A stretch of DNA of 64,000 bases from Escherichia coli (GCF_024502345.1 NZ_JALDNN010000001.1), one strand, 5' to 3'; positions 28,325 to 47,407 are shown, numbered from the stretch's first letter. The notes: a model not told the origin generated them from the sequence alone. Made by a program: numbers and translations.

Positions 28325-29381
28325 GGCTTTGTTGAATAAATCAGATTTCGGGTAAGTCTCCCCCGTAGCGGGTTGTGTTTTCAGGCAATACGCACGCTTT
28401 CAGGCATACCTGCTTTCGTCATTTTGTTCAGCGCTCGTACCAGGGCCATAGCCTCTGCAACCTGACCATCGTAGTCACGCAGTGTCAGTGAACCCCCGAA
28501 CAGCTGTTTTACCCGGTACATCGCCGTTTCCGCTATCGAGCGACGGTTGTAATCTGTTGTCCATTTCCACCGCGCATTACTCCCGGTCATTCGCTGATTA
28601 GCCACTGCACGGTTACGGTCTGCATATTCACCGGGCCAGTAACCCGCACCTTTTCGGGGAGGGATAAGCGCGCTGATTTTCTTACGCCGCAGTTCATCGT
28701 GACATAGCCGGGTATCGTAAGCGCCATCGGCGGCGGCTGACCTGATTTTCCGGTGGGTTTGCCGGATTAACCCGGGGAAGGCCTCTGAGTCCGTAACGTT
28801 GTTCAGCGACAGGTCAGCGCAGATGATTTCATGTGTTTTACTGTCAACGGCGAGATGCAGCTTACGCCAGATACGGCGGCGTTCCTGGCCATGCTTTTTG
28901 ACTTTCCACTCGCCTTCACCGAAGACCTTCAGCCCGGTGGAATCAATTACCAGGTGTGCGATTTCACCCCGGGTGGGCGTTTTGAAACTGACATTAACCG
29001 ACTTTGCCCGCCTGCTGACACAGCTGTAATCCGGGCAGCGTAGCGGAACGTTCATCAGAGAAAAAATGGAATCAATAAAGCCCTGCGCAGCGCGCAGGGT
29101 CAGCCTGAATACGCGTTTAATGACCAGCACAGTCGTGATGGCAAGGTCAGAATAGCGCTGAGGTCTGCCTCGTGAAGAAGGTGTTGCTGACTCATACCAG
29201 GCCTGAATAGCTTCATCATCCAGCCAGAAAGTTATGGAGCCACGGTTGATGAGGGCTTTATTGTAGGTGGGCCAGTTGGTGATTTTGAACTTTTGCTTTG
29301 CCACGGAACGGTCTGCGTTGTCGGGAAGATACGTGATCTGATCCTTCAACTCAGCAAAAGTTCGATTTATTCAACAAAGCC
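28325..29381 (-). mobile_element. IS903-family element, complete (1057 bp)
   Basis: 18-bp terminal inverted repeats GGCTTTGTTGAATAAATC at both ends; flanking 9-mers differ (GGTCGTTGT vs TGTCCCCAT). Confidence 0.93.
28381..29349 (-). CDS. IS903-family DDE transposase
   Basis: 322 aa track ORF; YREK-type signature (YNRRSIAETAMYRVKQ); true start may be an internal GTG. Confidence 0.9.
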   Translation of the reverse strand: MKDQITYLPDNADRSVAKQKFKITNWPTYNKALINRGSITFWLDDEAIQAWYESATPSSRGRPQRYSDLAITTVLVIKRVFRLTLRAAQGFIDSIFSLMNVPLRCPDYSCVSRRAKSVNVSFKTPTRGEIAHLVIDSTGLKVFGEGEWKVKKHGQERRRIWRKLHLAVDSKTHEIICADLSLNNVTDSEAFPGLIRQTHRKIRSAAADGAYDTRLCHDELRRKKISALIPPRKGAGYWPGEYADRNRAVANQRMTGSNARWKWTTDYNRRSIAETAMYRVKQLFGGSLTLRDYDGQVAEAMALVRALNKMTKAGMPESVRIA

Positions 29382-29480: not shown

Positions 29481-29900
29481 TTATGCGGCAATAACTTTGC
29501 ATTTTTGAGACGAAACATAGTCACTCCACCATTGCATGAGAACCACCCGTTCAGTGAGATACTCTGCACGATTGTAGGCTGCAATTATTTCATCTTTCTT
29601 CGAGTGGGCAAGGGCGGCTTCTAAGACATCAGTCCTAAACTTGCCAGACTCCTCAGCAGCCGTTCTAGCAATGGATCGCATACCGTGAGCTACAAGCTCA
29701 CCTCCGAAACCCATACGGATTATGGCCGCATTAGCTGTTTGTTCATGCATGTGATTGAGTGGAGCTTTGATACTGGGGAACACCCACTCTCTATGCCCGC
29801 TGATGACTTTCATTAAATCCAAAACTCGCAAAGCTTCTTTGCTCAGTGGAACTTTGTGAGGCTTCTTCATTTTCATAAACTCCGCCGGGATGTTCCACAT
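29481..29900 (-). pseudogene. Tyrosine integrase, 3' fragment (C-terminal ~139 aa)
   Basis: Aligns with the C-terminus of the intact integrase at 45621-46862 (...HGMRSIARTAA...ALAHSKKDEIIAAYNRAEYLTERVVLMQWWSDYV); no upstream integrase-coding sequence; AT-rich. Confidence 0.75.
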
Positions 29901-30062: not shown

Positions 30063-31772
30063 ATGAGTATGTTTCAGATATCAGCTGGAGTGTTCTTTGA
30101 TTTAGATAAAATAGAAAAACACGATGGCGCATTTGTTTTTTATTCAAATGTTGATGTGTCTTTCTCGGTGGAAAACACCTCCCCTCTTTTTAAAGCAAAT
30201 AAAATAAGTCATGATGGTATAAACTGTTATGTGGTAAACTATACTCTCCTGACCGAAAAACCAGAACGAATTGAAGCTGGAGTCGTAGTTAGGGCTGGTG
30301 ATGAGGATTATAGGCAACAATTTATTTTATTATGGGAATTCTATTTTGATTGTGTGGCTAGAGTAGAAAAAGAATCGGTTAAAAAAATATGTGCATTATC
30401 AAATTTTAATAAACATCACTCAAAAATTGCGCTTGAAGTTGCCCCATATTTAGTGGAGATTAACCGAAGAGTTTCATTTGATGATGTCTCTGGGTTTTCT
30501 GCTTTTATTAAAGATGTAGTGAATCTAAATAGATCTGCCTTTAAATCTTTAATGGCAGCGTTAAAAATAATTAGTGATTCAAAAGAATCATTGTCAACCA
30601 ACTTTGACCTGACTTATTCCATGTTAGTCTATGCCTTGGAGTCTTTGTCTCAAAGAAATGATAACTATAAGTCTGATTGGGATGACTACGATCAAAAAAC
30701 CAGAGGTGAATTAGAGTCTGTATTTGAGCATATGCCTGGTGAGGATGTTTGTAAAATTAAATCAATACTTATTGAAGGCAAACAATTCAGATTACAAAAA
30801 AGGTTCAAAGATTTTATACTGAAAAATCTTGAAGAAAATTATTTCAATGAAACAGAGAGATATCCAATCCGCTATAGCTTCCTTAGTAGAGCTTTAGATA
30901 ATTTATACAAAATCAGGTCTTCTTTTGTCCATGAGCTTAAGCCACTTGATGCAATGATCTCGAAAGCCTACAATCCTGTTGGTGATTGTCTGGTTCTTTT
31001 TGGCGAACCTCACTTCAGTTACTCTGGATTGCTTCGACTTCTTCGCCATGTGATAATAAATTTTTGCCGTAAAAACTACAGTCAAAAAAGAGAGTATGTT
31101 AATTGGGTGATGGAAACATCGGGTGTAATGGTTGCAGAGATATCTGCACAATATTGGCTCTGGAATGCAGACGGATTTACAGCTAAAAGTATAGCGAAGT
31201 GGTTTAGTGAATACCTAAATATGTTAAATTTAGGCGAAGTCACTGATTTGCAGTCTATCATGGACAAAATTGAGATAATCTATGACCAATCCAAAAAAGA
31301 ATATAAAAATGGGTTGTTGTATTTTTATTTCTTATATAACTTAATGCATAATGGAAATAAGGGTGAATGGCTTGAGTTTGCGAACAAGCGAAGTTCTATA
31401 CTTGTTTGTGATATATATTGGTATTCATGCTCTCCATATTTATATAAATCATTTACTAATGTTTCAAATGGTATTGCTGATATAAAAACATTGAGAAACT
31501 TTTTGTCTTGTTTTAACGAATATGATAAAAATAAATTTAAGCCAAATCGTTTAAATCTCCCTGCAATGACCGAAGTAATTATGTTGGCTTGCGCAGCAAA
31601 TTCATTCTTCAGAATTGGAATGTATCAAGACTATGTTTTAATGGGCAATAGAGCGATGAGAGAAATTGCTTCAGTAAAAGATGTATTTTATTATATAAAA
31701 GAACGATTAAGTAATTCACAACTTATTGAATTGGACGAGTGCTTGAGATTGTATAGAAAAAAAGGGGGCTAA
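30063..31772 (+). CDS. Hypothetical protein, 569 aa, AT-rich, no family recognised
   Basis: Single long ORF with strong AT bias; GAGT-containing RBS-like sequence before the ATG; bracketed by integrase 3' remnants and inverted IS903 copies. Confidence 0.75.
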   Translation: MSMFQISAGVFFDLDKIEKHDGAFVFYSNVDVSFSVENTSPLFKANKISHDGINCYVVNYTLLTEKPERIEAGVVVRAGDEDYRQQFILLWEFYFDCVARVEKESVKKICALSNFNKHHSKIALEVAPYLVEINRRVSFDDVSGFSAFIKDVVNLNRSAFKSLMAALKIISDSKESLSTNFDLTYSMLVYALESLSQRNDNYKSDWDDYDQKTRGELESVFEHMPGEDVCKIKSILIEGKQFRLQKRFKDFILKNLEENYFNETERYPIRYSFLSRALDNLYKIRSSFVHELKPLDAMISKAYNPVGDCLVLFGEPHFSYSGLLRLLRHVIINFCRKNYSQKREYVNWVMETSGVMVAEISAQYWLWNADGFTAKSIAKWFSEYLNMLNLGEVTDLQSIMDKIEIIYDQSKKEYKNGLLYFYFLYNLMHNGNKGEWLEFANKRSSILVCDIYWYSCSPYLYKSFTNVSNGIADIKTLRNFLSCFNEYDKNKFKPNRLNLPAMTEVIMLACAANSFFRIGMYQDYVLMGNRAMREIASVKDVFYYIKERLSNSQLIELDECLRLYRKKGG

Positions 31773-31932: not shown

Positions 31933-32673
31933 GGCTTTGTTGAATAAATCGAACTTTTGCTGAGTTGAAGGATCAGATCACGTATCTTCCCGACAACGCA
32001 GACCGTTCCGTGGCAAAGCAAAAGTTCAAAATCACCAACTGGCCCACCTACAATAAAGCCCTCATCAACCGTGGCTCCATAACTTTCTGGCTGGATGATG
32101 AAGCTATTCAGGCCTGGTATGAGTCAGCAACACCTTCTTCACGAGGCAGACCTCAGCGCTATTCTGACCTTGCCATCACGACTGTGCTGGTCATTAAACG
32201 CGTATTCAGGCTGACCCTGCGCGCTGCGCAGGGCTTTATTGATTCCATTTTTTCTCTGATGAACGTTCCGCTACGCTGCCCGGATTACAGCTGTGTCAGC
32301 AGGCGGGCAAAGTCGGTTAATGTCAGTTTCAAAACGCCCACCCGGGGTGAAATCGCACACCTGGTAATTGATTCCACCGGGCTGAAGGTCTTCGGTGAAG
32401 GCGAGTGGAAAGTCAAAAAGCATGGCCAGGAACGCCGCCGTATCTGGCGTAAGCTGCATCTCGCCGTTGACAGTAAAACACATGAAATCATCTGCGCTGA
32501 CCTGTCGCTGAACAACGTTACGGACTCAGAGGCCTTCCCCGGGTTAATCCGGCAAACCCACCGGAAAATCAGGTCAGCCGCCGCCGATGGCGCTTACGAT
32601 ACCCGGCTATGTCACGATGAACTGCGGCGTAAGAAAATCAGCGCGCTTATCCCTCCCCGAAAAGGTGCGGGTT
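31933..32673 (+). mobile_element. IS903-family element, truncated second copy (~741 bp), inverted relative to copy 1
   Basis: Starts with GGCTTTGTTGAATAAATCGAACTTTTGCTGAG; identical to copy 1 up to ...AAAGGTGCGGGTT, then diverges into the yfjP-like fragment. Confidence 0.9.
31965..32673 (+). pseudogene. IS903-family transposase, C-terminally truncated
   Basis: First ~236 codons identical to the copy-1 transposase; track ORF continues in unrelated out-of-frame sequence. Confidence 0.8.
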
Positions 32674-33094
32674 GCATCACACCGTTCCAGAACTGCTCGT
32701 CCACCGACAGCGCACGGTCATCAGCTTTGATGACCCACAGCACCAGGTCAAGCTCTGGCAGCATACGCCGGTACAGGGCGCGGTATTCATGGTCCCGTTG
32801 TCCGTTCTCTCCCACGCCCGGTAAATCAACAATCACCAGACTGTGACGACCACTGCGCAGCCGGAAGCGCAGTATGTCGCGGGTGCAGGCGTTCACATCA
32901 CTGACGGCGGAGACTTCCCCCCGAAAGAGTTCGTTACAGAGCGACGACTTACCGGCACCACTCTTGCCCATGATGCCAATCACCGGCTCGTAGTGGGTCA
33001 GATTCTGAATACGTTCAAGAATAAGCTGGCGAAGCGTATCGGGAAGCGACGCCAGCGGTTTTTCCAGGGCCTGAAGGCCATCAGTTTTATTCAT
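32674..33094 (-). pseudogene. yfjP: YfjP/YkfA/YeeP-family GTPase, N-terminal fragment
   Basis: MNKTDGLQALEKPLASLPDTLRQLILERIQNLTHYEPVIGIMGKSGAGKSSLCNELF... (P-loop GKSGAGKS); cut short at the IS903 junction. Confidence 0.75.
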
Positions 33095-33726: not shown

Positions 33727-36540
33727 ATGCCAATGGAGAGCTGTACGCAAATGAACGCCGTAGAAATTGAACAAGCCATCACGGATCTTGCAGAGCAACC
33801 CTTTGATCCTATAGAGTTTCCTTATGCTTTTCTTGAAGCCTTTGGTAACAAGGAAACGACTGTCAAACGCTTGCGCGCCGGTGCATCAAACAAATCCGAC
33901 TTGGGCGGTGTTCTCCAGAGCAATAATATTCACATTCTGACCTGCGAAGCAGGGACTGTGACTCAGATGTTGGCCGCGCTCAAGGCTAGCCCTGCGACAA
34001 CTAAAGCCAAGGCGAAGTTCATCCTGGCTACAGATGGCAAAGATTTCGAAGCTGAAGACCTCGTTAGCGGTCAGACTGTCGCTTGCGCCTTTAAAGACTT
34101 CCCAGATCACTTCGGCTTTTTCTTGCCATTAGCAGGCATTAGCACAGTTCGTCAGATTTGTGAGAACTCCTTTGACATTCGGGCCACTAGCCGGCTGAAT
34201 CGTCTGTATGTCGAGTTGTTGAAAGATAACCCTACCTGGGGGACGGCGGAGCGACGTCATGACATGAACAAATTCATGACTCGGCTGATCTTTTGTTTTT
34301 TCGCTGAGGATACTGACATTTTCGTGGGTAAGGGACGCTTTACTGAAACCGTTGCGCAGATGAGTACAAGAGATTCGTCGAATACGCATGAAGTTATCGC
34401 TACCTTGTTTCGTGCCATGAACACCAGTAACAAAGATAGAGCCGCCGCTGGCATCCCGCGCTGGGCCAATGAGTTTCCTTATGTCAACGGACGCTTGTTC
34501 TCTGGGAGTAATGATGTACCACTGTTCAGTAAGATTGCACGGTCTTATTTGCTCCATGTGGGTAGCCTTGACTGGACCAAGATTAATCCGGATATCTTTG
34601 GCTCGATGATTCAGGCAATTGCCGAAGACGAAGAACGCGGAGAGCTGGGGATGCATTACACCAGCGTACCCAACATCTTAAAAGTTTTGAATCCACTATT
34701 TCTGGACGACCTGCGCGCAAAGCTGGATGAGGCGGGTGACAATCCGCGTATGTTGCTTAACCTGCGTAAGCGCATTTCCCACATCCGTGTGTTCGACCCA
34801 GCGTGCGGTTCTGGTAACTTTTTGGTTATCGCGTACAAGGAAATGCGTGCCATTGAGGCCGAAATCAACAAGCGGCGTAATGAGCCAGATCGCGCCTCGG
34901 ATATCCCACTTACCAACTTTCGCGGGATTGAACTAAGAGATTTCCCGGCAGAGATCGCCCGCCTTGCGCTTGTTATCGCTGAGTACCAATGTGATGTACT
35001 GTACCGTGGGCTGCGGTTGGCCTTGGCTGAGCTTCTTCCGTTACGCAACGAAAATTGGATTACCTGTGGCAATGCACTACGGCTCGACTGGTTAAGAATT
35101 TGCCCGCCGACAGGAACAGGTGTGAAATTACATGGCGATGACTTGTTTGGATCTCCGCTTGATCAGGCAGAGATCGACTTTGAGAATGAAGGCGGAGAGA
35201 CATACATTTGCGGTAACCCACCATACCTTGGTTCAAAGTGGCAGACGGATGAACATAAAGCTGATCTTGGCACAATCTTTTCTGGTCGCGTGAAAAATTG
35301 GAAATCGCTCGATTATGTTGCTGGCTGGTTCCTGAAAGCCGCTGACTATGGTAGCCAGACAAGTTCCCAGGCTGCTTTTGTTGCCACTAATTCAATCAGC
35401 CAAGGGCAGCAAGTGTCGATTCTGTGGCCGGAAATATTCAAGGCAGGACAAGAGATTAGTTTCGCTTACACGAGCTTTAAGTGGTCGAACCTCGCTACTC
35501 ACAACGCCGGGGTCACAGTTGTTATCATCGGAATTTCTAACTGTGTAGGAAAGTCGCGACGCCTCTTTTCGGCTGGAGGAGACAATGGTGCGACGACGTG
35601 TCGTGAGGTGGAGCGCATCAACGCCTATTTGATCGCTGGCCCTAACATCATTGTGGAGGGGGACAGTTGTCCAGCCGACAGTCTTGCAACGATGCAGTTC
35701 GGTAACCACCCGTACTATGGTGCATCACTGATCTTTTCGAGATCTGAAGCACAGCAGATGATGTCTGTCGATCCGCGTACGGCGCGTTTTATTCGCCCAC
35801 TATATGGCTCCCAAGAGTTCATTTCCGCTGTGCCACGAGCCTGTCTATGGATTAACGACGATGAGGCTGACGAAGCGGGGACGATTCCTCTGATAGCTGA
35901 GCGTATGAGCGCCGTAGCAAGTGCTAGACGTGCAAAAAAACAAGACAAGGCAGCCCAGAAACTGGCTAAGACTCCATATCGCTTTCGCGACCAGCAGACA
36001 TCTACGAATCATATTCTTGTGGTTCCTCGAGTCAGTTCAGAGAACCGTCCTTGCTTGCCGGTTGGATTACTTGACTCTGACTCTATCGTTCAAGATCAAG
36101 CATTCGCCCTTTACGACGCTCCTCTCTGGAACCTCGCCATCATAGCGAGTCGCCTGCATCTAGTTTGGATCGCCACGGTTTGTGGAAAGTTAGAGACACG
36201 CTACCGCTATTCAAACACCCTCGGCTGGAATACTTTCCCGCTCCCAACACTCACTGAGAAAAATAAGGCAGACCTCACGCGCTGTGCAGAGGATATTCTT
36301 CTGACTAGGGAGCATCACTTCCCTGCAACCATTGCAGACCTTTATGACCCCGAGAAGATGCCAGACGACCTGCGTATTGTGCACGAGCGTAATGACGAAG
36401 TGCTTGAGCGTATTTACATTGGGCGCCGCTTTAAGAATGACACAGAGCGGCTTGAGAAGCTGTTTGACCTTTATACTAAGATGGCCGCTTCAACTGCATC
36501 GGGCAAAAGCAATAAACGTAAAGTGGGAACCAATGCATGA
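33727..36540 (+). CDS. MmeI/PglX-like gamma-class N6-adenine DNA methyltransferase, 937 aa; no recognisable N-terminal PD-ExK motif
   Basis: Motif X-like HYTS, motif I VFDPACGSGNFLV, motif IV ICGNPPYLG; other blocks (RLIFCFFAEDTDIF, FPYVNGRLF, AFVATNSISQGQQVSILWP, LETRYRYSNTLGWNTFP) resemble the MmeI/PglX family from memory. Start could be Met-9 (33751). Confidence 0.85.
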   Translation: MPMESCTQMNAVEIEQAITDLAEQPFDPIEFPYAFLEAFGNKETTVKRLRAGASNKSDLGGVLQSNNIHILTCEAGTVTQMLAALKASPATTKAKAKFILATDGKDFEAEDLVSGQTVACAFKDFPDHFGFFLPLAGISTVRQICENSFDIRATSRLNRLYVELLKDNPTWGTAERRHDMNKFMTRLIFCFFAEDTDIFVGKGRFTETVAQMSTRDSSNTHEVIATLFRAMNTSNKDRAAAGIPRWANEFPYVNGRLFSGSNDVPLFSKIARSYLLHVGSLDWTKINPDIFGSMIQAIAEDEERGELGMHYTSVPNILKVLNPLFLDDLRAKLDEAGDNPRMLLNLRKRISHIRVFDPACGSGNFLVIAYKEMRAIEAEINKRRNEPDRASDIPLTNFRGIELRDFPAEIARLALVIAEYQCDVLYRGLRLALAELLPLRNENWITCGNALRLDWLRICPPTGTGVKLHGDDLFGSPLDQAEIDFENEGGETYICGNPPYLGSKWQTDEHKADLGTIFSGRVKNWKSLDYVAGWFLKAADYGSQTSSQAAFVATNSISQGQQVSILWPEIFKAGQEISFAYTSFKWSNLATHNAGVTVVIIGISNCVGKSRRLFSAGGDNGATTCREVERINAYLIAGPNIIVEGDSCPADSLATMQFGNHPYYGASLIFSRSEAQQMMSVDPRTARFIRPLYGSQEFISAVPRACLWINDDEADEAGTIPLIAERMSAVASARRAKKQDKAAQKLAKTPYRFRDQQTSTNHILVVPRVSSENRPCLPVGLLDSDSIVQDQAFALYDAPLWNLAIIASRLHLVWIATVCGKLETRYRYSNTLGWNTFPLPTLTEKNKADLTRCAEDILLTREHHFPATIADLYDPEKMPDDLRIVHERNDEVLERIYIGRRFKNDTERLEKLFDLYTKMAASTASGKSNKRKVGTNA

Positions 36541-38582
36541 GCAACAAGATTAGATCTGTACCGTCAGTTTCTGTTACCTACTCACGCAACGGAGCATCGA
36601 CCAAGGCTAATTCTCTTGGGATGCGTCCTATGCAAGAAAGGGCTTATGAGAAGCGCGGAGAACAATATCTTCTCATAAAGTCGCCGCCCGCCTCTGGCAA
36701 GAGTCGTGCGCTGATGTTCGTCGCACTCGATAAACTCGCAAACCAGGGGATCAAACAGGCAATCATTGTCGTGCCGGAAAAATCTATCGGCGCGAGCTTC
36801 AACGATGAACCGCTATCGCAGTTTGGATTCTGGGCTGATTGGCATGTTGAACCTAAGTGGAATCTGTGCAACGCCCCCGGTAACGACAACGGCGGCAAGG
36901 TAAAATCTTTCGGCTCTTTTCTTGAAAGTAGCGACAAGGTGCTTGTTTGTACACACGCAACCTTTCGCTTCGCGGTCGATGCCTACGGTGTAGAGGCGTT
37001 TGACGATCGCCTGATCGCCGTCGATGAATTTCACCATGTGTCCGCTAACCCGGATAACAAGCTTGGTCAGCATCTGGGACAGTTCATTGAGCGTGACAAG
37101 ACGCACATCGTGGCCATGACCGGCTCCTACTTCCGGGGAGATGCGGAAGCCGTTTTGGCTCCTCAGGATGAGTCTAGGTTCGATACCGTCACCTACACCT
37201 ACTACGAACAACTCAACGGTTACGAATACCTCAAACAGCTTGATATCGGATACTTCTTTTATAGTGGATCATACATTGATGACATCCTCAATGTCCTCGA
37301 TCCTGACAAGAAAACGATTATCCATATTCCCAACGTCAATTCGCGCGAGAGTACGAAGGATAAAATTAAGGAGGTGGAGCACATTCTGAGCGAGCTTGGC
37401 GATTGGCAAGGTGCGGATCCTACGACTGGTTTTCAGCTAGTCAAGCGCCCCGATGGCCATGTGTTGCGTATTGCTGACCTGGTGGACCCAGCCAGTCAAG
37501 GCAAGATTCAGGAAAGCCTCCGAGCTCCAGAAATGAAGACAGACCGTGACTATGTAGACATCATTATTGCACTTGGTATGGCGAAGGAAGGTTTCGACTG
37601 GATCTGGTGCGAACATGCGCTGACTGTTGGCTACCGTGCCAGCCTGACTGAGATCGTGCAGATTATCGGTCGCGCTACTCGCGACGCGCCGGGTAAAACC
37701 CGCGCGAGATTTACTAACTTGATCGCCGAGCCCGACGCTGTAGAGGGCGCAGTAACTGAGGCAGTCAACGATACCTTGAAAGCTATCGCGGCGAGCCTGT
37801 TGATGGAACAGGTACTGGCTCCGCGCTTCGAGTTCAAGCCCAAGAATCCTGAAATCGGTCCGACTCCAGGCTTTGATTATGGTGATGGAGGATATGACCC
37901 GGATAGCTGCAATTTTGGTGTTAATGAGCAGACAGGGACGTATCAAATCGAGATTAAGGGACTTGCCGAGCCTAGGAGCAAAGAGGCGGCACGTATCTGC
38001 CAGGAAGATTTAAACGAAGTGATCGCGGCCTTTGTGCAGGATAAGCCCGCCATCGAACGAGGCCTGTTCGATGAAGAGCTGATCCCTGAAGAGTTAACAC
38101 AGGTTCGTATGGGTAAGATCATCAAAGAAAAGTATCCTGAACTTGATGCTGAAGATCAGGAGGCTGTACGTCAGCATGCTATCGCCGCCCTTAACCTCAC
38201 GCAGCAGGCCAAGCGTCTTGCTACCGGTGAAAACGATGGGACGCTCAATACTGCTCTTATTGACGGAGTGCGTCGCTTTGCAATGGATGTGCGCGATTTA
38301 GACATAGACCTTATCGACCGCATCAATCCCTTTGGTGAAGCCTACGCTATCCTTGCTAAGACGATGAGTGAAGACAGTTTGAAGCAGGTCGCGGCGGCCA
38401 TCTCGGCCAAGCGTACTTCGATCACGCCTGAAGATGCCAAGGTGATCGCCAAGCGTGCCGCTGAATTCAAACGTGAACGTGGGCGCCTCCCATCGTTAAC
38501 TTCGCTGGATGCTTGGGAAAAACACCTTGCTGAAGGTGCAGCCGCGTTTATGCGTTTTAGGGCGGAGGGACGTTATGAGTAA
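36537..38582 (+). CDS. SF2 DExH-box helicase (ResIII-like), 681 aa, with ~270 aa C-terminal region of unknown function
   Basis: Motif I PPASGKS, motif II AVDEFHHV, motif III MTGS, motif VI QIIGRATRD; ATG overlaps the methyltransferase stop (ATGA). Confidence 0.85.
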   Translation: MSNKIRSVPSVSVTYSRNGASTKANSLGMRPMQERAYEKRGEQYLLIKSPPASGKSRALMFVALDKLANQGIKQAIIVVPEKSIGASFNDEPLSQFGFWADWHVEPKWNLCNAPGNDNGGKVKSFGSFLESSDKVLVCTHATFRFAVDAYGVEAFDDRLIAVDEFHHVSANPDNKLGQHLGQFIERDKTHIVAMTGSYFRGDAEAVLAPQDESRFDTVTYTYYEQLNGYEYLKQLDIGYFFYSGSYIDDILNVLDPDKKTIIHIPNVNSRESTKDKIKEVEHILSELGDWQGADPTTGFQLVKRPDGHVLRIADLVDPASQGKIQESLRAPEMKTDRDYVDIIIALGMAKEGFDWIWCEHALTVGYRASLTEIVQIIGRATRDAPGKTRARFTNLIAEPDAVEGAVTEAVNDTLKAIAASLLMEQVLAPRFEFKPKNPEIGPTPGFDYGDGGYDPDSCNFGVNEQTGTYQIEIKGLAEPRSKEAARICQEDLNEVIAAFVQDKPAIERGLFDEELIPEELTQVRMGKIIKEKYPELDAEDQEAVRQHAIAALNLTQQAKRLATGENDGTLNTALIDGVRRFAMDVRDLDIDLIDRINPFGEAYAILAKTMSEDSLKQVAAAISAKRTSITPEDAKVIAKRAAEFKRERGRLPSLTSLDAWEKHLAEGAAAFMRFRAEGRYE

Positions 38583-39753
38583 TTCTGATTTAGACGATTT
38601 GGCGGCAGAACTTGCTGAATTTGCACCACCGGAGAAGAAAAAAGGACGTCCAGCCAGCGAGGAACGCATCATCGCAGGTTTTGAGGAAATCCAGCGCTTC
38701 GCTGACCAACATGGACGTGCGCCGCAACACGGCGAAGAGCGTGAGATCTTTGAGCGCCTCTATGCAGTGCGGCTCGACCGGCTACGCAGTCTCCCAGACT
38801 GCCGTGCCTTGCTAGAGCCGCTGGATCATCAAGGCTTATTGGCTGGAGGGGGTGATGTAGCGGAGTCAGCGGACGAAATTATCGATATCGATAATTTGGC
38901 TGCCGAACTGACGGATGTTTCCAGCGAGGATGATATCACAGTCTTGCGTCATGTTCGTGCTAGCGCCGAAAAGCGTGCTGTACAAGGGATCGCGGATCGC
39001 AAGCCGTGCGAGGATTTTGATACATTCAAACCGCTATTTGAACAGGTGCGCAGTGATCTAAGTTCAGGGTTAAGAGTGACCCGACCTTTTGGACAGTATG
39101 CAACGATTGAAGTGGGCCATTGGTTCATCCTGGATGGTCAAACGGCTTATGTGGCTGAGGAAGGTGAAGAGTTCGATTCTCCACAGGGGAAGAAAGATGC
39201 TCGGCTGCGTGTCATTTATTCGAATGGTACAGAAAGTAACCTGCTTCGGCTGTCATTAGTTCGTGCTTTGTATAAAGACGAAACAGCACGTCGAATTACC
39301 GATCCAGACATGGGGCCTTTATTCAGCGATGCTCTAGAAGAGAGCGATCTAGAAAGTGGCACCATTTATGTATTGCGTTCGCTATCAGATAACCCTTATG
39401 TGGCCGAACATCGTGATGTTATTCACAAGATTGGTGTGACTGGCGGCAAGGTCGAGACTCGTATTGCTAATGCTGAACACGATTCCACCTATCTGTTGGC
39501 GAAGGTAGAGGTGGTCGCTTCATACAAACTCGCAGGTATCAACCGCACCCGGATGGAAAACCTGTTTCACAGGTTGTTTGCACCCGCAAGGCTTAACATT
39601 ACCATTAACGACCGTTTCGGCCATCCAGTACAGCCCGAGGAATGGTTTCTCGTTCCGTTATTCGTTATCGATGAGGCTGTTGCACGTATTAAGGATGGTA
39701 GCATCATTGGGTATGTTTATGACCCCATGTCTGCGAAACTGGTGAAGGCATAG
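38575..39753 (+). CDS. GIY-YIG-like / T5orf172-like domain protein, ~392 aa (tentative domain call)
   Basis: GGAGG RBS then ATG at 38575 overlapping helicase stop (ATGAGTAA); C-terminal region GTIYVLRS...YVAEHRDVIHKIGVTGGKVETRIAN resembles GIY...YIG-R; acidic N-terminus. Confidence 0.65.
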   Translation: MSNSDLDDLAAELAEFAPPEKKKGRPASEERIIAGFEEIQRFADQHGRAPQHGEEREIFERLYAVRLDRLRSLPDCRALLEPLDHQGLLAGGGDVAESADEIIDIDNLAAELTDVSSEDDITVLRHVRASAEKRAVQGIADRKPCEDFDTFKPLFEQVRSDLSSGLRVTRPFGQYATIEVGHWFILDGQTAYVAEEGEEFDSPQGKKDARLRVIYSNGTESNLLRLSLVRALYKDETARRITDPDMGPLFSDALEESDLESGTIYVLRSLSDNPYVAEHRDVIHKIGVTGGKVETRIANAEHDSTYLLAKVEVVASYKLAGINRTRMENLFHRLFAPARLNITINDRFGHPVQPEEWFLVPLFVIDEAVARIKDGSIIGYVYDPMSAKLVKA

Positions 39754-39868
39754 TGAAGTGACACACTGAATTTGGCCACCTGTTCTGAGGTGAGTATATC
39801 ACCTCAGAACAGCACAGGAATAAAAGATACTGATTTGAATGTACCTATACTTTGCGATGTGAGGATCA

Positions 39869-40660
39869 ATGAATAGTAACCTGACCAAGATATGTTACCG
39901 TGGTGAGACTGGTGAAAGTGATCTAAGAACGTTGATACTTGGTGAGATTCTATATATCTCACTACGAGATGTTTTAATCACGCTGAATAAAGAAAATAGA
40001 GAAATCAACGCTGATTACACAGTAAAATCGATGGCTGGAATAATCAGGGCGCAATTACAGGCTCTTGACCCTGATGAGTATATTACTACAGATGCTGAAA
40101 ATGGTGTTTTTGAAGGTCAGAAAGAGATCTTCGTCACCCAGCCAGGTTTGTATCGAGTCATGTCAAGTGACCGAAGCGCTGCCGGTAAGCGCTTTCAAAA
40201 ATGGTTATTTCATGAAGTCATACCATCATTGACTAAGCATGGTGTATACCCGCCTCCGCCAGAAGCGAAAGGTTCAGCCCTTGCACAAATGGCTGAGATA
40301 CTTGCTCAAAATTCGCGAGCACTTGCTGACGCAATCCATAAACACGAAAAACTGGCCGAAGATGTCTCACAGGTTAAAGGTAAAGTTGCCAACGTTGAAA
40401 GCCGTCTGGAACTGTTAGAATCAGGTCCTTCCACTGTAACTGAAGATATGCATACTCTTGATAGCCGTCTCGCTTATTTGGACATGAGCATGGAAGAAAA
40501 GCATACCACCGAGACATTAGCCTGGTGCGAGAATATTTCTGTTCAAAATAACAGGAAGGTGATTCGCAAGGACTGTAGGGAGAATTCGCTCTTTACAACG
40601 CAGACTATCGACGAAGCAATCGCTATCATGACTGAAAGTGGAAAAATCACACCAAATTGA
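39869..40660 (+). CDS. Bro-N domain protein (phage antirepressor-like), 263 aa
   Basis: ...GLYRVMSSDRSAAGKRFQKWLFHEVIPSLTKHG matches the Bro-N/Ant hallmark (F..W...EV.PSI); coiled-coil-like C-terminal half. Confidence 0.7.
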   Translation: MNSNLTKICYRGETGESDLRTLILGEILYISLRDVLITLNKENREINADYTVKSMAGIIRAQLQALDPDEYITTDAENGVFEGQKEIFVTQPGLYRVMSSDRSAAGKRFQKWLFHEVIPSLTKHGVYPPPPEAKGSALAQMAEILAQNSRALADAIHKHEKLAEDVSQVKGKVANVESRLELLESGPSTVTEDMHTLDSRLAYLDMSMEEKHTTETLAWCENISVQNNRKVIRKDCRENSLFTTQTIDEAIAIMTESGKITPN

Positions 40661-40748
40661 AGATCCTGGGGTTCAGATTATCTGCTGGCTATCTTATTGA
40701 GCTCTGACGTAAAATAGGCCTTCCCACAAAGAGAAGGCCATTGCCGAC

Positions 40749-41375
40749 TTACAGATCGATTTGGCTACAGCCGAAGTTACGGTCTCCTTCACCAAACACT
40801 TTGCTTTCGACTTTGGTGAGGTAATCCAGTCGGGTTAACAGCGCTTGGTAGTTATGCTGGAAGTCAGCATTATTGGTATCCAGCACGTACTTACAGTTGT
40901 CAGGAAAATGGACCAGACCAGGGTGATCATCCAGTTTCAGTCCCAGGGCGCTGTACCACGCTCCCGTAATCATCCCTCTCAGGTTATCGTGCTGATCGTA
41001 ATCCCCGAGGTGGTAGTAAGCGTCTTTGTTGAACAACAGGCAAATGTGGTAGTGGCATTTACCTGACTCAGAATACTCTTTCGCCCATATAATAAATAAA
41101 GGGCAACGGTAGATGCGTTTACCTTCACGCTCCTTACGGGTACGGTCAGCCTCCAGTTTAGCTCTGAGGGAATCACGCATTCGGGATATCACCCCTGGTT
41201 CAAGATTAGGGAAACAGCAGATATTGTCTCCGTTATCGACTATCTTCGGATAATGCAGATCGACACGTACCGCCGTTAACCTGGGGTAACGGTTAGTCAA
41301 ATAACATAATAATTTTTTAATCTTGATCTGATATTCGAGGATATGTACTCCATGAGTACCTTGATATGTTTTCAT
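40749..41375 (-). CDS. YagK/YfjJ-family protein (inovirus Gp2-like)
   Basis: 208 aa ORF with Cys/His-rich stretch (CHYHICLLFNKDAYYH); family assignment from memory of CP4-57/CP4-6 yfjJ/yagK. Confidence 0.6.
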   Translation of the reverse strand: MKTYQGTHGVHILEYQIKIKKLLCYLTNRYPRLTAVRVDLHYPKIVDNGDNICCFPNLEPGVISRMRDSLRAKLEADRTRKEREGKRIYRCPLFIIWAKEYSESGKCHYHICLLFNKDAYYHLGDYDQHDNLRGMITGAWYSALGLKLDDHPGLVHFPDNCKYVLDTNNADFQHNYQALLTRLDYLTKVESKVFGEGDRNFGCSQIDL

Positions 41376-45620: not shown

Positions 45621-46862
45621 TCAAACAACAAGTTTTAATGCACCGGCACTAGATTCTACCATGCTTCCTTTATCTGCTCTTTTAACAAAATCAGCCCACC
45701 ATTGCATCATCGGCCTACGTTGCTCAAGATAATCACTGCGGTTATAAGCGCGACGTACCTCATTTTTGTCTACATGAGCAAGTGCGGCTTCAATGACATC
45801 AGGAGGAAATCCTTGCTCATTGAGGGCTGTACTGGCGATAGAACGCAAACCATGTGAAACCAGCACTCCCCCTAAACCGGCACGCTTGAGTGCAGCATTC
45901 ACGGTTTGACTGTTCATCGGCTGAGTGGGCTTAATGCGGCTTGGAAAAATAAAATCTCGGCCACCACTGAGCGGCTTCATCATTTCCAGAATAGCCAGAG
46001 CCCCATCAGATAATGGAACGGTATGGTCCCGGTTCATTTTCATTCGGGCTGCTGGAATTTTCCATTCGTTAGCATCAAAATCGATCTCATTCCACCGAGC
46101 TTCTGCGGCTTCTGCGGGGCGGGTGATGGTGAGAAGTTGCCACATGAACAGACACCGCGTAGACAGGCTGATACTGGCCGTACGCATAGTTTGCATCAAC
46201 TGAGGCAACTGATCCGGACGAATACTGGGCATGTTCTTTTTCTGAGGTTTCTCGAAGGCTTTGCCAATATTAACACTGGGAACTGCATCAATCAGGCCCG
46301 TGTTTTGGGCATAAATCATGACTTCATTGATCCGTTGGCAAAGACGGCGGACAGTTTCCAGTGCTCCTCGGGCCTGAACGGGTTGAACGGCTTGAACCAG
46401 TGTATGGGCTTTAATATCTGTAACGCTTACGTTGCCAATTGCGGGAAATATATCTCTTTCAAGCGAACGCCAGATATCATCAGCATAGTCCTCGGTTACA
46501 CTGGCTTTCTTCACATTCCACCAACGCTCGGCAACTAACAAGAAAGTGTTGGTTTTGGCCTCCTGAGAATTTCTTATCTGTTCTTTTTGGTATTCCTGAG
46601 GATCGATTCCTTTTGCCAGTAATACTTTGGATTCAGCTCTGAGCTTACGAGCATCGGAAAGCGAGACAGCAGGATAGGAACCGAAGCTCTGTTTAGTTCG
46701 CTGTTTTGTCAGAGGTCGGTAATAACGGAATTGCCAGAGCTTACTGCCACTGGATTTGATTAGCAGCGTCAGTCCGTCACCATCATACAACTGATAATCG
46801 GCATCTTTAGATTTGGCTGCTTTGATTTCCGTATCCGTTAACGGCTTGGTTTTTCTTGCCAC
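45621..46862 (-). CDS. intA: P4/CP4-57-type tyrosine integrase (IntA-like)
   Basis: 413 aa: MARKTKPLTDTEIKAAKSKDADYQLYDGDGLTLLIKSSGSKLWQFRYY...; C-terminal catalytic region HGLRSIASTA...AHVDKNEVRRAYNRSDY; adjacent to ssrA 3' end. Confidence 0.93.
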   Translation of the reverse strand: MARKTKPLTDTEIKAAKSKDADYQLYDGDGLTLLIKSSGSKLWQFRYYRPLTKQRTKQSFGSYPAVSLSDARKLRAESKVLLAKGIDPQEYQKEQIRNSQEAKTNTFLLVAERWWNVKKASVTEDYADDIWRSLERDIFPAIGNVSVTDIKAHTLVQAVQPVQARGALETVRRLCQRINEVMIYAQNTGLIDAVPSVNIGKAFEKPQKKNMPSIRPDQLPQLMQTMRTASISLSTRCLFMWQLLTITRPAEAAEARWNEIDFDANEWKIPAARMKMNRDHTVPLSDGALAILEMMKPLSGGRDFIFPSRIKPTQPMNSQTVNAALKRAGLGGVLVSHGLRSIASTALNEQGFPPDVIEAALAHVDKNEVRRAYNRSDYLEQRRPMMQWWADFVKRADKGSMVESSAGALKLVV

Positions 46863-47044: not shown

Positions 47045-47407
47045 TGGTGGAGCTGGCGGGAGTTGAACCCGCGTCCGAAATTCCTACATCCTCGGTACTA
47101 CATGCTTAGTCAGTCTTTACATTCGCTTGCCAGCTGCGGACGGACACGCCACTAACAAACTAGCCTGATTAAGTTTTAACGCTTCAACCCCAGGCAGGGC
47201 TTCCACGCGATCTCTTTTGGGTTTGACCTCTCTTGATCCCCGTCCTAAGAGCGGAGGCTAGGGAGAGAGGGCTCTAAGCAGGTTATTAAGCTGCTAAAGC
47301 GTAGTTTTCGTCGTTTGCGACTATTTTTTGCGGCTTTTTACGAGGCCAACCGCCCCTCGGCATGCACCTTGGGTTTCGCAAATCCCGTCGAATCCAGAAT
47401 CAGCCCC
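47045..47407 (-). ncRNA. ssrA: tmRNA (SsrA), 363 nt
   Basis: Reverse complement begins GGGGCTGATTCTGGATTCGACGGG and ends GGTTCAACTCCCGCCAGCTCCACCA; terminator-like hairpin follows at ~46975-47015. Confidence 0.97.

Follow-up and report, generated by a model that had tools for sequence, protein, structure and literature searches.

A YeeABC-type restriction-like operon and a neighbouring Bro-N gene probably form independent modules in an Escherichia coli ssrA island

MmeI homologues that lack a nuclease motif are described as 'invariably' flanked by a DEAD helicase and a conserved GIY-YIG-motif protein, the type being YeeA-YeeB-YeeC of Bacillus subtilis, and it has been speculated that such clusters owe their specificity and the protection of the host to the methyltransferase, and the cutting of DNA to the helicase and nuclease subunits (Morgan et al. 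2009, PMC2731913). The order DnmA-YeeB-YeeC is conserved across bacteria (Fernandez et al., PMC9973331), and in Vibrio crassostreae yeeAB is reported to make the host resistant to a subclade of phages (Piel et al., preprint, 10.1101/2021.05.05.442762). Here we analyse a stretch of 64,000 nucleotides from Escherichia coli (GCF_024502345.1, NZ_JALDNN010000001.1), referred to as the window, in which a triplet of this architecture is followed on the same strand by a gene for a stand-alone Bro-N protein. We conclude, with a probability of roughly three in four, that the triplet and the Bro-N gene are two independent modules that share the cargo slot of a CP4-57/CP4-6-type island at ssrA, and that are neighbours in a single lineage of E. 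coli islands.

Gene 1 of the triplet (33727-36540, plus strand) encodes an MmeI-like N6-adenine DNA methyltransferase with a target-recognition domain and, as in YeeA/DnmA, without a PD-ExK nuclease domain. The protein gives a full-length PADLOC match to REase_MTase_IIG PDLC03598 ('Type IIG'; 3.9e-284) and aligns with MmeI (PDB 5hr4; E = 4.4e-138) over query residues 96-458 and 493-935. Since the alignment begins at query residue 96 and MmeI residue 108, leaving query residues 1-95 unaligned with MmeI residues 1-107, the N-terminal part that bears the PD-ExK nuclease of MmeI is replaced in gene 1. Gene 2 (36537-38582, plus strand) encodes a YeeB-like superfamily 2 (SF2) DEAD/ResIII helicase (Pfam DEAD 8.9e-6, ResIII 3.2e-5; PHROG DNA helicase 1.2e-10), with which a PDB sequence search returned nothing useful. 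The start of gene 2 overlaps the stop of gene 1 by 4 nucleotides and the start of gene 3 overlaps the stop of gene 2 by 8, overlaps that indicate translational coupling of the triplet genes. By architecture and domain content, the triplet is a YeeA(DnmA)-YeeB-YeeC-type restriction-like cluster. The ARMADA/YprA paper deals with another system, and YeeA appears in it only as a relative among methyltransferases.

Gene 3 (38575-39753, plus strand) encodes a YeeC-like protein of 392 residues with a helical N-terminal region, a beta-rich middle and a C-terminal T5orf172/GIY-YIG domain. Its start at 38575 is that of RefSeq and of the homologues, which begin MSNSDLDDL; a longer start at 38509 is not used there. 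Pfam assigns residues 262-372 to MUG113 (7.5e-13) and T5orf172 (1.2e-10), both of the GIY-YIG clan, and G262-T-I-Y265, K285-I-G287, R296 and E355-E-W-F358 are invariant in 21 homologues. The family is large (more than 8000 homologues, the top 120 at 80-98% identity), and its top members come from Enterobacterales, Pseudomonas, Alcaligenaceae, Stenotrophomonas and others. PADLOC and NCBIfam assign gene 3 to no family, and a PDB sequence search with it yielded nothing useful. A T5orf172-domain protein of phage ICP1, Gp88 (Odn), is reported to be an origin-directed nuclease (PMC8263062), and gene 3 is a probable nuclease subunit of the triplet. In a low-confidence structure model, residues of about 175-245 form the beta-rich middle domain, whose Foldseek matches to SH3/Tudor-like barrels (eIF5A, the UHRF1 tandem Tudor) are non-significant and unreliable and were not used. 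A very weak match of residues 36-54 to a 'homing endonuclease associated repeat' is likewise unreliable.

Gene 4 (39869-40660, plus strand) begins after a spacer of exactly 115 bp (39754-39868) and encodes a stand-alone Bro-N protein of 263 residues, which comprises a Bro-N domain (residues 1-124), a long helix (137-184) and a small C-terminal domain (190-260) with an invariant W219. The protein contains KRFQKWLFHEVIPSL. Pfam recognises Bro-N at residues 20-119 over the whole length of the model (2.6e-6), and PHROGs returns families named 'anti-repressor Ant' (best 2.8e-15). An AlphaFold model built with 41 homologues has a mean predicted local distance difference test (pLDDT) score of 82, contains the same three parts and matches 124 viral Bro-N/Ant proteins at E<=1e-3 in a structure search. 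Comparison of this model with the PDB by Foldseek gave no significant match, and a PDB sequence search likewise gave nothing useful. PADLOC and NCBIfam provide no family for the protein, Pfam detects in it neither an ANT/KilAC C-terminal domain (weak coiled-coil matches only) nor an enzymatic or effector domain, and we found no paper characterising this family in the literature. Genes 3 and 4 are real genes with significant domain matches and do not reflect chance resemblance. A preliminary description of this DNA had proposed a GIY-YIG-like/T5orf172-like segment at the end of gene 3 and a Bro-N signature in the next gene, 115 bp downstream on the same strand, and both observations stand. It had also called the two genes phage-derived modules. 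Because tblastn with gene 3 against 50,697 phage records gives zero matches, that phrase is not supported for gene 3, which is conserved as the third subunit of a restriction-like operon already known from cells.

The family to which the Bro-N protein belongs comprises 119 clusters of about 260 residues, all full length and all from Gammaproteobacteria. It is conserved over its whole length, at 40-95% identity, in Enterobacterales, Vibrionales and Alteromonadales. Among five E. coli copies, synonymous codon differences outnumber non-synonymous ones about 3-4 fold; judged from its sequence, the gene is intact and under purifying selection, and we take it to be functional, though autonomous.

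The distributions of the triplet and of the Bro-N gene are independent. A scan of other species, using one genome per species, produced 80 loci with gene 3 relatives at 62-95% identity, 75 of which extend at least 1 kb downstream of gene 3. By tblastn, the helicase lies directly upstream of gene 3 and the methyltransferase further upstream in nearly all of the 80 loci with enough flanking sequence, and the Bro-N protein finds a match in none of the 80 (YagK, discussed below, finds one only). A hidden Markov model of the Bro-N family and another of its N-terminal domain only, run against 13,577 stop-to-stop segments from all six frames of the 80 loci, return nothing at E<=10. Co-occurrence of the Bro-N gene with the triplet in other genomes, which the preliminary description had named as a check on its proposal, is thus seen in neither search. 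The genes that do lie 3' of the triplet in other species are heterogeneous: a TrlF-family AAA-like ATPase at 7 loci, another ABC-type ATPase at 8, an open reading frame (ORF) of about 80 residues at 5, and unrelated genes at the rest.

The TrlF-family ATPase, of about 889 residues, lies 33-102 bp after the gene 3 homologue in seven species; it scores 586 bits in NCBIfam against a cutoff of 350 and is also related to the anti-phage protein Ppl. The ABC-type ATPase found 3' of the triplet at eight further loci is a different protein of about 870 residues. The small ORF is conserved, encodes 73-86 residues and begins 42-66 bp after gene 3 at four loci (L014, L019, L038, L039) and 1.2 kb after it at L033.

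Within the operon itself, the methyltransferase gene is set apart from the helicase gene by a gap of 0.4-2.6 kb, or of 7 kb at a single locus, in about 34 of the 47 assessable other-species loci (L013, L015, L017, L019-L021, L027, L033, L037-L039, L042, L044, L046-L048, L073 and others), and the compact overlapping triplet of the window is a minority form among species. The gap holds diverse co-oriented passengers: a RhuM-family gene (8 loci; Pfam 1.5e-108), a 348-residue protein judged by eye to be HxK/PLD-like (4 loci), an uncharacterised 445-residue protein (4 loci) and a 484-residue protein (2 loci). The RhuM-family passengers were considered as distant relatives of the Bro-N protein, a kinship that would have made Bro-like partners a recurring feature of triplets, and rejected at an hhalign probability of 0.2%. 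Across loci L009-L088, identity to the window is highest for the helicase (mostly 78-97%), intermediate for gene 3 (62-95%) and lowest for the methyltransferase (about 57-85%), the last of which fits diversification of its target-recognition part.

Within E. coli, gene 3 is carried by 98 of 5426 complete genomes, and an intact Bro-N gene follows the intact triplet in 3 of the 98 (strain 2013C-4282, for example). The sizes of the E. coli junction classes are approximate, being extrapolated from an evenly spaced 60 of the 172 junction-matching records. In some 43 genomes, such as UMNF18, the Bro-N gene is cut by an insertion sequence at 39964-39967. The match to the window stops at 39889 in about 14 genomes (AW1.7, with an IS5 transposase gene downstream), at 39831 in about 3, and at 39818 in one genome seen (KCJ3K291, where a transposase fragment follows). 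A break at 39758 characterises about 26 genomes (EC18, with IS26), and about 6 share homology as far as the stop codon of gene 3, at 39753 (ET565, where a gene for a 1650-residue AAA protein comes next). All three triplet genes are annotated as intact in UMNF18, KCJ3K291 and ET565; the upstream side of the triplet is also interrupted by insertion sequences in EC18 and AW1.7. The Bro-N gene is full length in 77 E. coli genomes, and about 72 genomes have it without the triplet.

Where the triplet is missing, the Bro-N gene occupies a wide range of settings. The E. coli copies of this kind follow a type III-like Mod/Res pair, DprA with two unknown genes, or insertion sequences. A Klebsiella island without any restriction genes carries a Bro-N homologue that is flanked by the GTPase and integrase genes. 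More distant family members share 40-50% identity; those of Vibrio cholerae (L089-L092; about 45%) belong to arrays of small genes of one orientation, and in front of each homologue stands a repeat with GCCCCTTAGGCGGGCGTTA at its end, which we take to be the attC repeat of the V. cholerae integron. From the arrays and the repeats, these homologues look like chromosomal integron cassettes. A P22-like prophage of Pectobacterium carries a homologue as an accessory gene between its early and lysis genes, and in the tmRNA-integrating (transfer-messenger RNA) phage LLS, the sole source of a full-length homologue among the 50,697 phage records, the gene adjoins attP. In E. coli STEC17-190 (L006, 3008-8808), a Bro-N gene of about 87% nucleotide identity follows genes for a 707-residue methyltransferase and an 857-residue DEAD/DEAH helicase, and this restriction-like pair and its Bro-N gene occupy the same island slot after the GTPase gene.

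We regard the triplet and the Bro-N gene as independent because the latter is absent from all 80 other-species loci, has been lost in about 95 of the 98 E. coli carriers and is widely found alone. The preliminary description had offered two readings of the pair, and it is the second, that the Bro-N gene is unrelated cargo, which the independent distributions and the homology breakpoints between the modules support. Its first suggestion, a Bro-N regulator or sensor paired with gene 3 as effector, fails the co-occurrence test that the same description had set, the gene being missing from every other-species locus, intact in 3 of 98 E. coli carriers and present in some 72 genomes without the triplet; a true functional partnership of the Bro-N gene with the triplet appears very unlikely.

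The same settings bear on what the Bro-N gene might do for itself. Carried as an accessory by islands, prophages and integrons, it could act against phages or exclude superinfection (or else counter defences or manipulate helpers), sharing the triplet's defence hotspot yet working alone. A single Bro-N gene in V. cholerae integron arrays, beside the attP of LLS, between the early and lysis genes of a prophage and beside restriction-like systems in the cargo slot of CP4-like islands would suit such a role, as would purifying selection. However, the protein matches nothing in PADLOC or NCBIfam and shows no effector or enzymatic domain, its sole informative similarity is to Ant-type regulators, and genomic position is weak evidence for defence, so we consider this explanation possible yet distinctly less than probable. 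A broader conjecture, and a slightly more doubtful one, is that the family of about 260 residues is a portable one-gene phage-interaction module that acts either in stand-alone defence or in the manipulation of helper phages and prophages. Speculative to a similar degree is the idea that such a module has been captured repeatedly at the 3' edge of the defence cargo of P4-like islands, as Vibrio integron cassettes and at attP-proximal accessory sites of temperate phages.

The boundary between the two modules can be placed within the 115-bp spacer. Its first 65 bp (39754-39818, plus strand) accompany the E. coli triplet as a 3' segment, present in loci L001-L003 and missing upstream of Bro-N copies elsewhere. 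This segment contains a perfect 14-bp stem with a 5-nucleotide loop and no U-tract (39780-39812), which was not scored as an intrinsic terminator, and the RNA fold of the whole spacer has a centroid energy of -26.2 kcal/mol (z = -2.9). Triplets of other genera have different hairpins shortly 3' of the stop codon; six loci (L011, L013, L014, L021, L023, L030) share a CCCTGG...CCAGGG-type hairpin just 3' of the gene 3 stop that is unlike that of the window. The remaining 50 bp (39819-39868, plus strand) constitute the Bro-N leader, with -10-like hexamers GATACT (39826-39831) and TATACT (39846-39851), judged by eye only, and a Shine-Dalgarno sequence GAGGA (39862-39866). Homology with Bro-N copies in other contexts begins at 39819, 39827 or 39851-39856. 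TATACTG upstream of the Bro-N gene is conserved in four other copies (L005, L006, L008, L097), and the window has GATACT at that motif. A promoter and terminator scan of the spacer found nothing, with no full sigma-70 consensus and with scan totals equal to shuffled expectation.

The 65-bp hairpin segment also occurs on the E. coli plasmid pYLMB10a (L099, 4001-4065), where the triplet is missing and the segment has a truncated tnpC gene of IS66 on one side and a further transposase fragment on the other. Insertion-sequence activity probably brought this copy along as a scar. The transposase-fragment flanks on the plasmid, which resemble the insertion-sequence junction of KCJ3K291, prompted the idea that the hairpin is an IS66 end; that idea was dropped.

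The differing hexamer and the frequent truncation of the gene by insertion sequences in E. coli might suggest that the Bro-N ORF is a decaying, functionless prophage remnant, the window copy having GATACT where other copies have TATACT. Against decay stand the 77 E. coli genomes with a full-length gene, the full-length conservation at 40-95% identity across three orders, the excess of synonymous over non-synonymous differences and the confident structure model, and we consider it highly improbable that the ORF is a remnant of this kind.

A number of observations weigh against the independence of the two modules or against the activity proposed for the triplet. The Bro-N gene is always co-oriented with its upstream cargo, which is twice a helicase-containing restriction-like operon. 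Gene 3 and the Bro-N gene are separated by neither a consensus promoter nor a canonical terminator, so that co-transcription by read-through is possible. About 60 of the 98 E. coli carriers of the triplet retain the same spacer and a 5' stub of the Bro-N gene, which implies that the pairing is ancestral to the commonest island variant. Phage ICP1 has a Bro-N gene beside its T5orf172 nuclease gene (PMC8263062). As to the triplet, DnmA-YeeB-YeeC of B. subtilis showed no DNA restriction and no protection from three phages (PMC9973331), a result that leaves nuclease action of gene 3 unproven for the family, and the AlphaFold model of gene 3, from a shallow alignment of 21 sequences, is too poor (pLDDT 59.7) to confirm the nuclease fold and finds no significant PDB match in Foldseek.

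The first of these points can be combined into a different explanation, in which the Bro-N protein is a shared accessory (a regulator, sensor or establishment controller) of helicase-containing restriction-like operons in E. coli islands, the window triplet included. Its position immediately 3' of, and co-oriented with, both the triplet and the type III-like Mod/Res pair would fit, as would the want of a clear promoter or terminator separating it from gene 3 and the ICP1 precedent. An accessory of this kind is nevertheless absent from all 80 triplet loci of other species and destroyed or replaced in about 95 of the 98 E. coli carriers, the triplet being intact in the strains inspected; the Bro-N gene is moreover common without nearby restriction genes, and the homology breakpoint falls exactly between the modules. 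On this balance, a shared accessory seems to us quite improbable, and we favour two independent modules.

The reading of independent modules suggests the following model. Module 1 (33727-39818) is a YeeA(DnmA)-YeeB-YeeC-type restriction-modification-like operon closed by a strong hairpin. Its methyltransferase, having lost the N-terminal nuclease of MmeI, may recognise an asymmetric site and mark host DNA, and may leave the cutting of unmarked DNA to two recruited partners, the SF2 helicase and the GIY-YIG/T5orf172 protein. Module 2 (39819-40660) is a self-contained single-gene cassette that moves by itself among islands, prophages and integrons; it encodes a Bro-N DNA-binding domain, a long helix that probably dimerises, and a small conserved domain at the C-terminus. 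Its product is most likely an Ant-like DNA- or repressor-binding factor aimed at the regulation of phages or islands rather than at the restriction operon.

The surroundings of the two modules identify the island. A tmRNA gene (47045-47407, minus strand) adjoins a P4-type integrase gene (45621-46862), and the closest genome, that of E. coli strain 2013C-4282, which is 97.9% identical across 8 kb of the window, is annotated with a CP4-57/CP4-6-like island at ssrA. Its gene order is intA, a helix-turn-helix gene, yagM, yagL, yagK (inovirus Gp2 family) and the Bro-N gene, then the GIY-YIG, helicase and methyltransferase genes, insertion-sequence remnants and a GTPase gene, beyond which lies the usual antirestriction, RadC and CbtA block. 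From this order, the triplet and the Bro-N gene occupy the variable cargo region of the island, with yagK at its right border. In the window, that border corresponds to the island backbone gene YagK/YfjJ of the inovirus Gp2 family (40749-41375, minus strand), identified from the RefSeq annotation of the 97.9% identical locus and by phrog_25019 (1.3e-61); a terminator scan places a terminator-like hairpin with a T-run downstream of yagK (40717-40739, minus strand).

Elsewhere in the window, a 569-residue ORF (30063-31772, plus strand) lies within a markedly low-GC stretch (33-34%) between an intact and a truncated IS5-family transposase gene of opposite orientation (28381-29349, minus strand, and 31965-32846, plus strand). 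PADLOC matches it weakly to Cas13-ApeA (7.3e-6) and NCBIfam places it in no family; it may represent a second, HEPN-type defence cargo beside the triplet. A 139-residue ORF (29481-29900, minus strand) matches the C-terminal third only of the P4-type integrase model (9.3e-48); as a truncated second integrase, it suggests a tandem or rearranged island.

For catalogues of defence systems, these results mean that the restriction-like system is best listed without the Bro-N gene among its components. The E. coli island copy provides a compact and apparently intact representative of the YeeABC type, with its putative cleavage mechanism, and nature offers variants that have the Bro-N gene and variants that lack it for direct comparison. 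The analysis also delimits a small Bro-N protein family whose members, as single-gene cassettes, are cheap candidates for a phage-phenotype screen.

Comparison with described systems places each module more precisely. The Bro-N protein resembles Ant-type antirepressors, which combine Bro-N with ANT/KilAC, in its N-terminal Bro-N domain, in its best PHROG families and in its viral fold matches. It differs from them in its C-terminal 140 residues, a family-specific helix and small domain in which no ANT/KilAC is detected. In phage ICP1, a Bro-N/KilAC gene adjoins the T5orf172 nuclease gene gp88 (Odn), much as gene 4 adjoins gene 3 (PMC8263062). The BRO proteins of baculoviruses, iridoviruses and poxviruses share the Bro-N fold with gene 4, and one iridovirus BRO-like protein bears a GIY-YIG domain, an example of Bro-N/GIY-YIG domain shuffling; these, however, are single-protein fusions in eukaryotic viruses, whereas in the window the two domains belong to separate and independently mobile genes.

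For the triplet, MmeI (Type IIL/IIG) is homologous to gene 1 in its methyltransferase and target-recognition regions from residue 96 onwards. MmeI has a PD-ExK nuclease of its own at the N-terminus and does not depend on a helicase, whereas in the window system cleavage is presumably the task of separate helicase and GIY-YIG subunits. Type I, III and ISP restriction systems likewise combine a methyltransferase, an SF2 (ResIII-type) ATPase and a nuclease, and they too have passenger genes inside the operon, as the RhuM-family gene is in triplets of other species. In the triplet, by contrast, the nuclease would be a separate GIY-YIG/T5orf172 protein and not a PD-(D/E)xK domain fused to the motor, and an HsdS-type specificity subunit is missing. 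The closest counterpart is DnmA(YeeA)-YeeB-YeeC. The B. subtilis copy is reported to be inactive, with C-terminal deletions in YeeB and YeeC, and the window copy is E. coli/proteobacterial and known here from sequence alone. The two nevertheless share an MmeI-like methyltransferase without PD-ExK, an SF2 helicase and a T5orf172/GIY-YIG protein, encoded by co-oriented genes in an identical order, as well as residence in mobile or defence islands.

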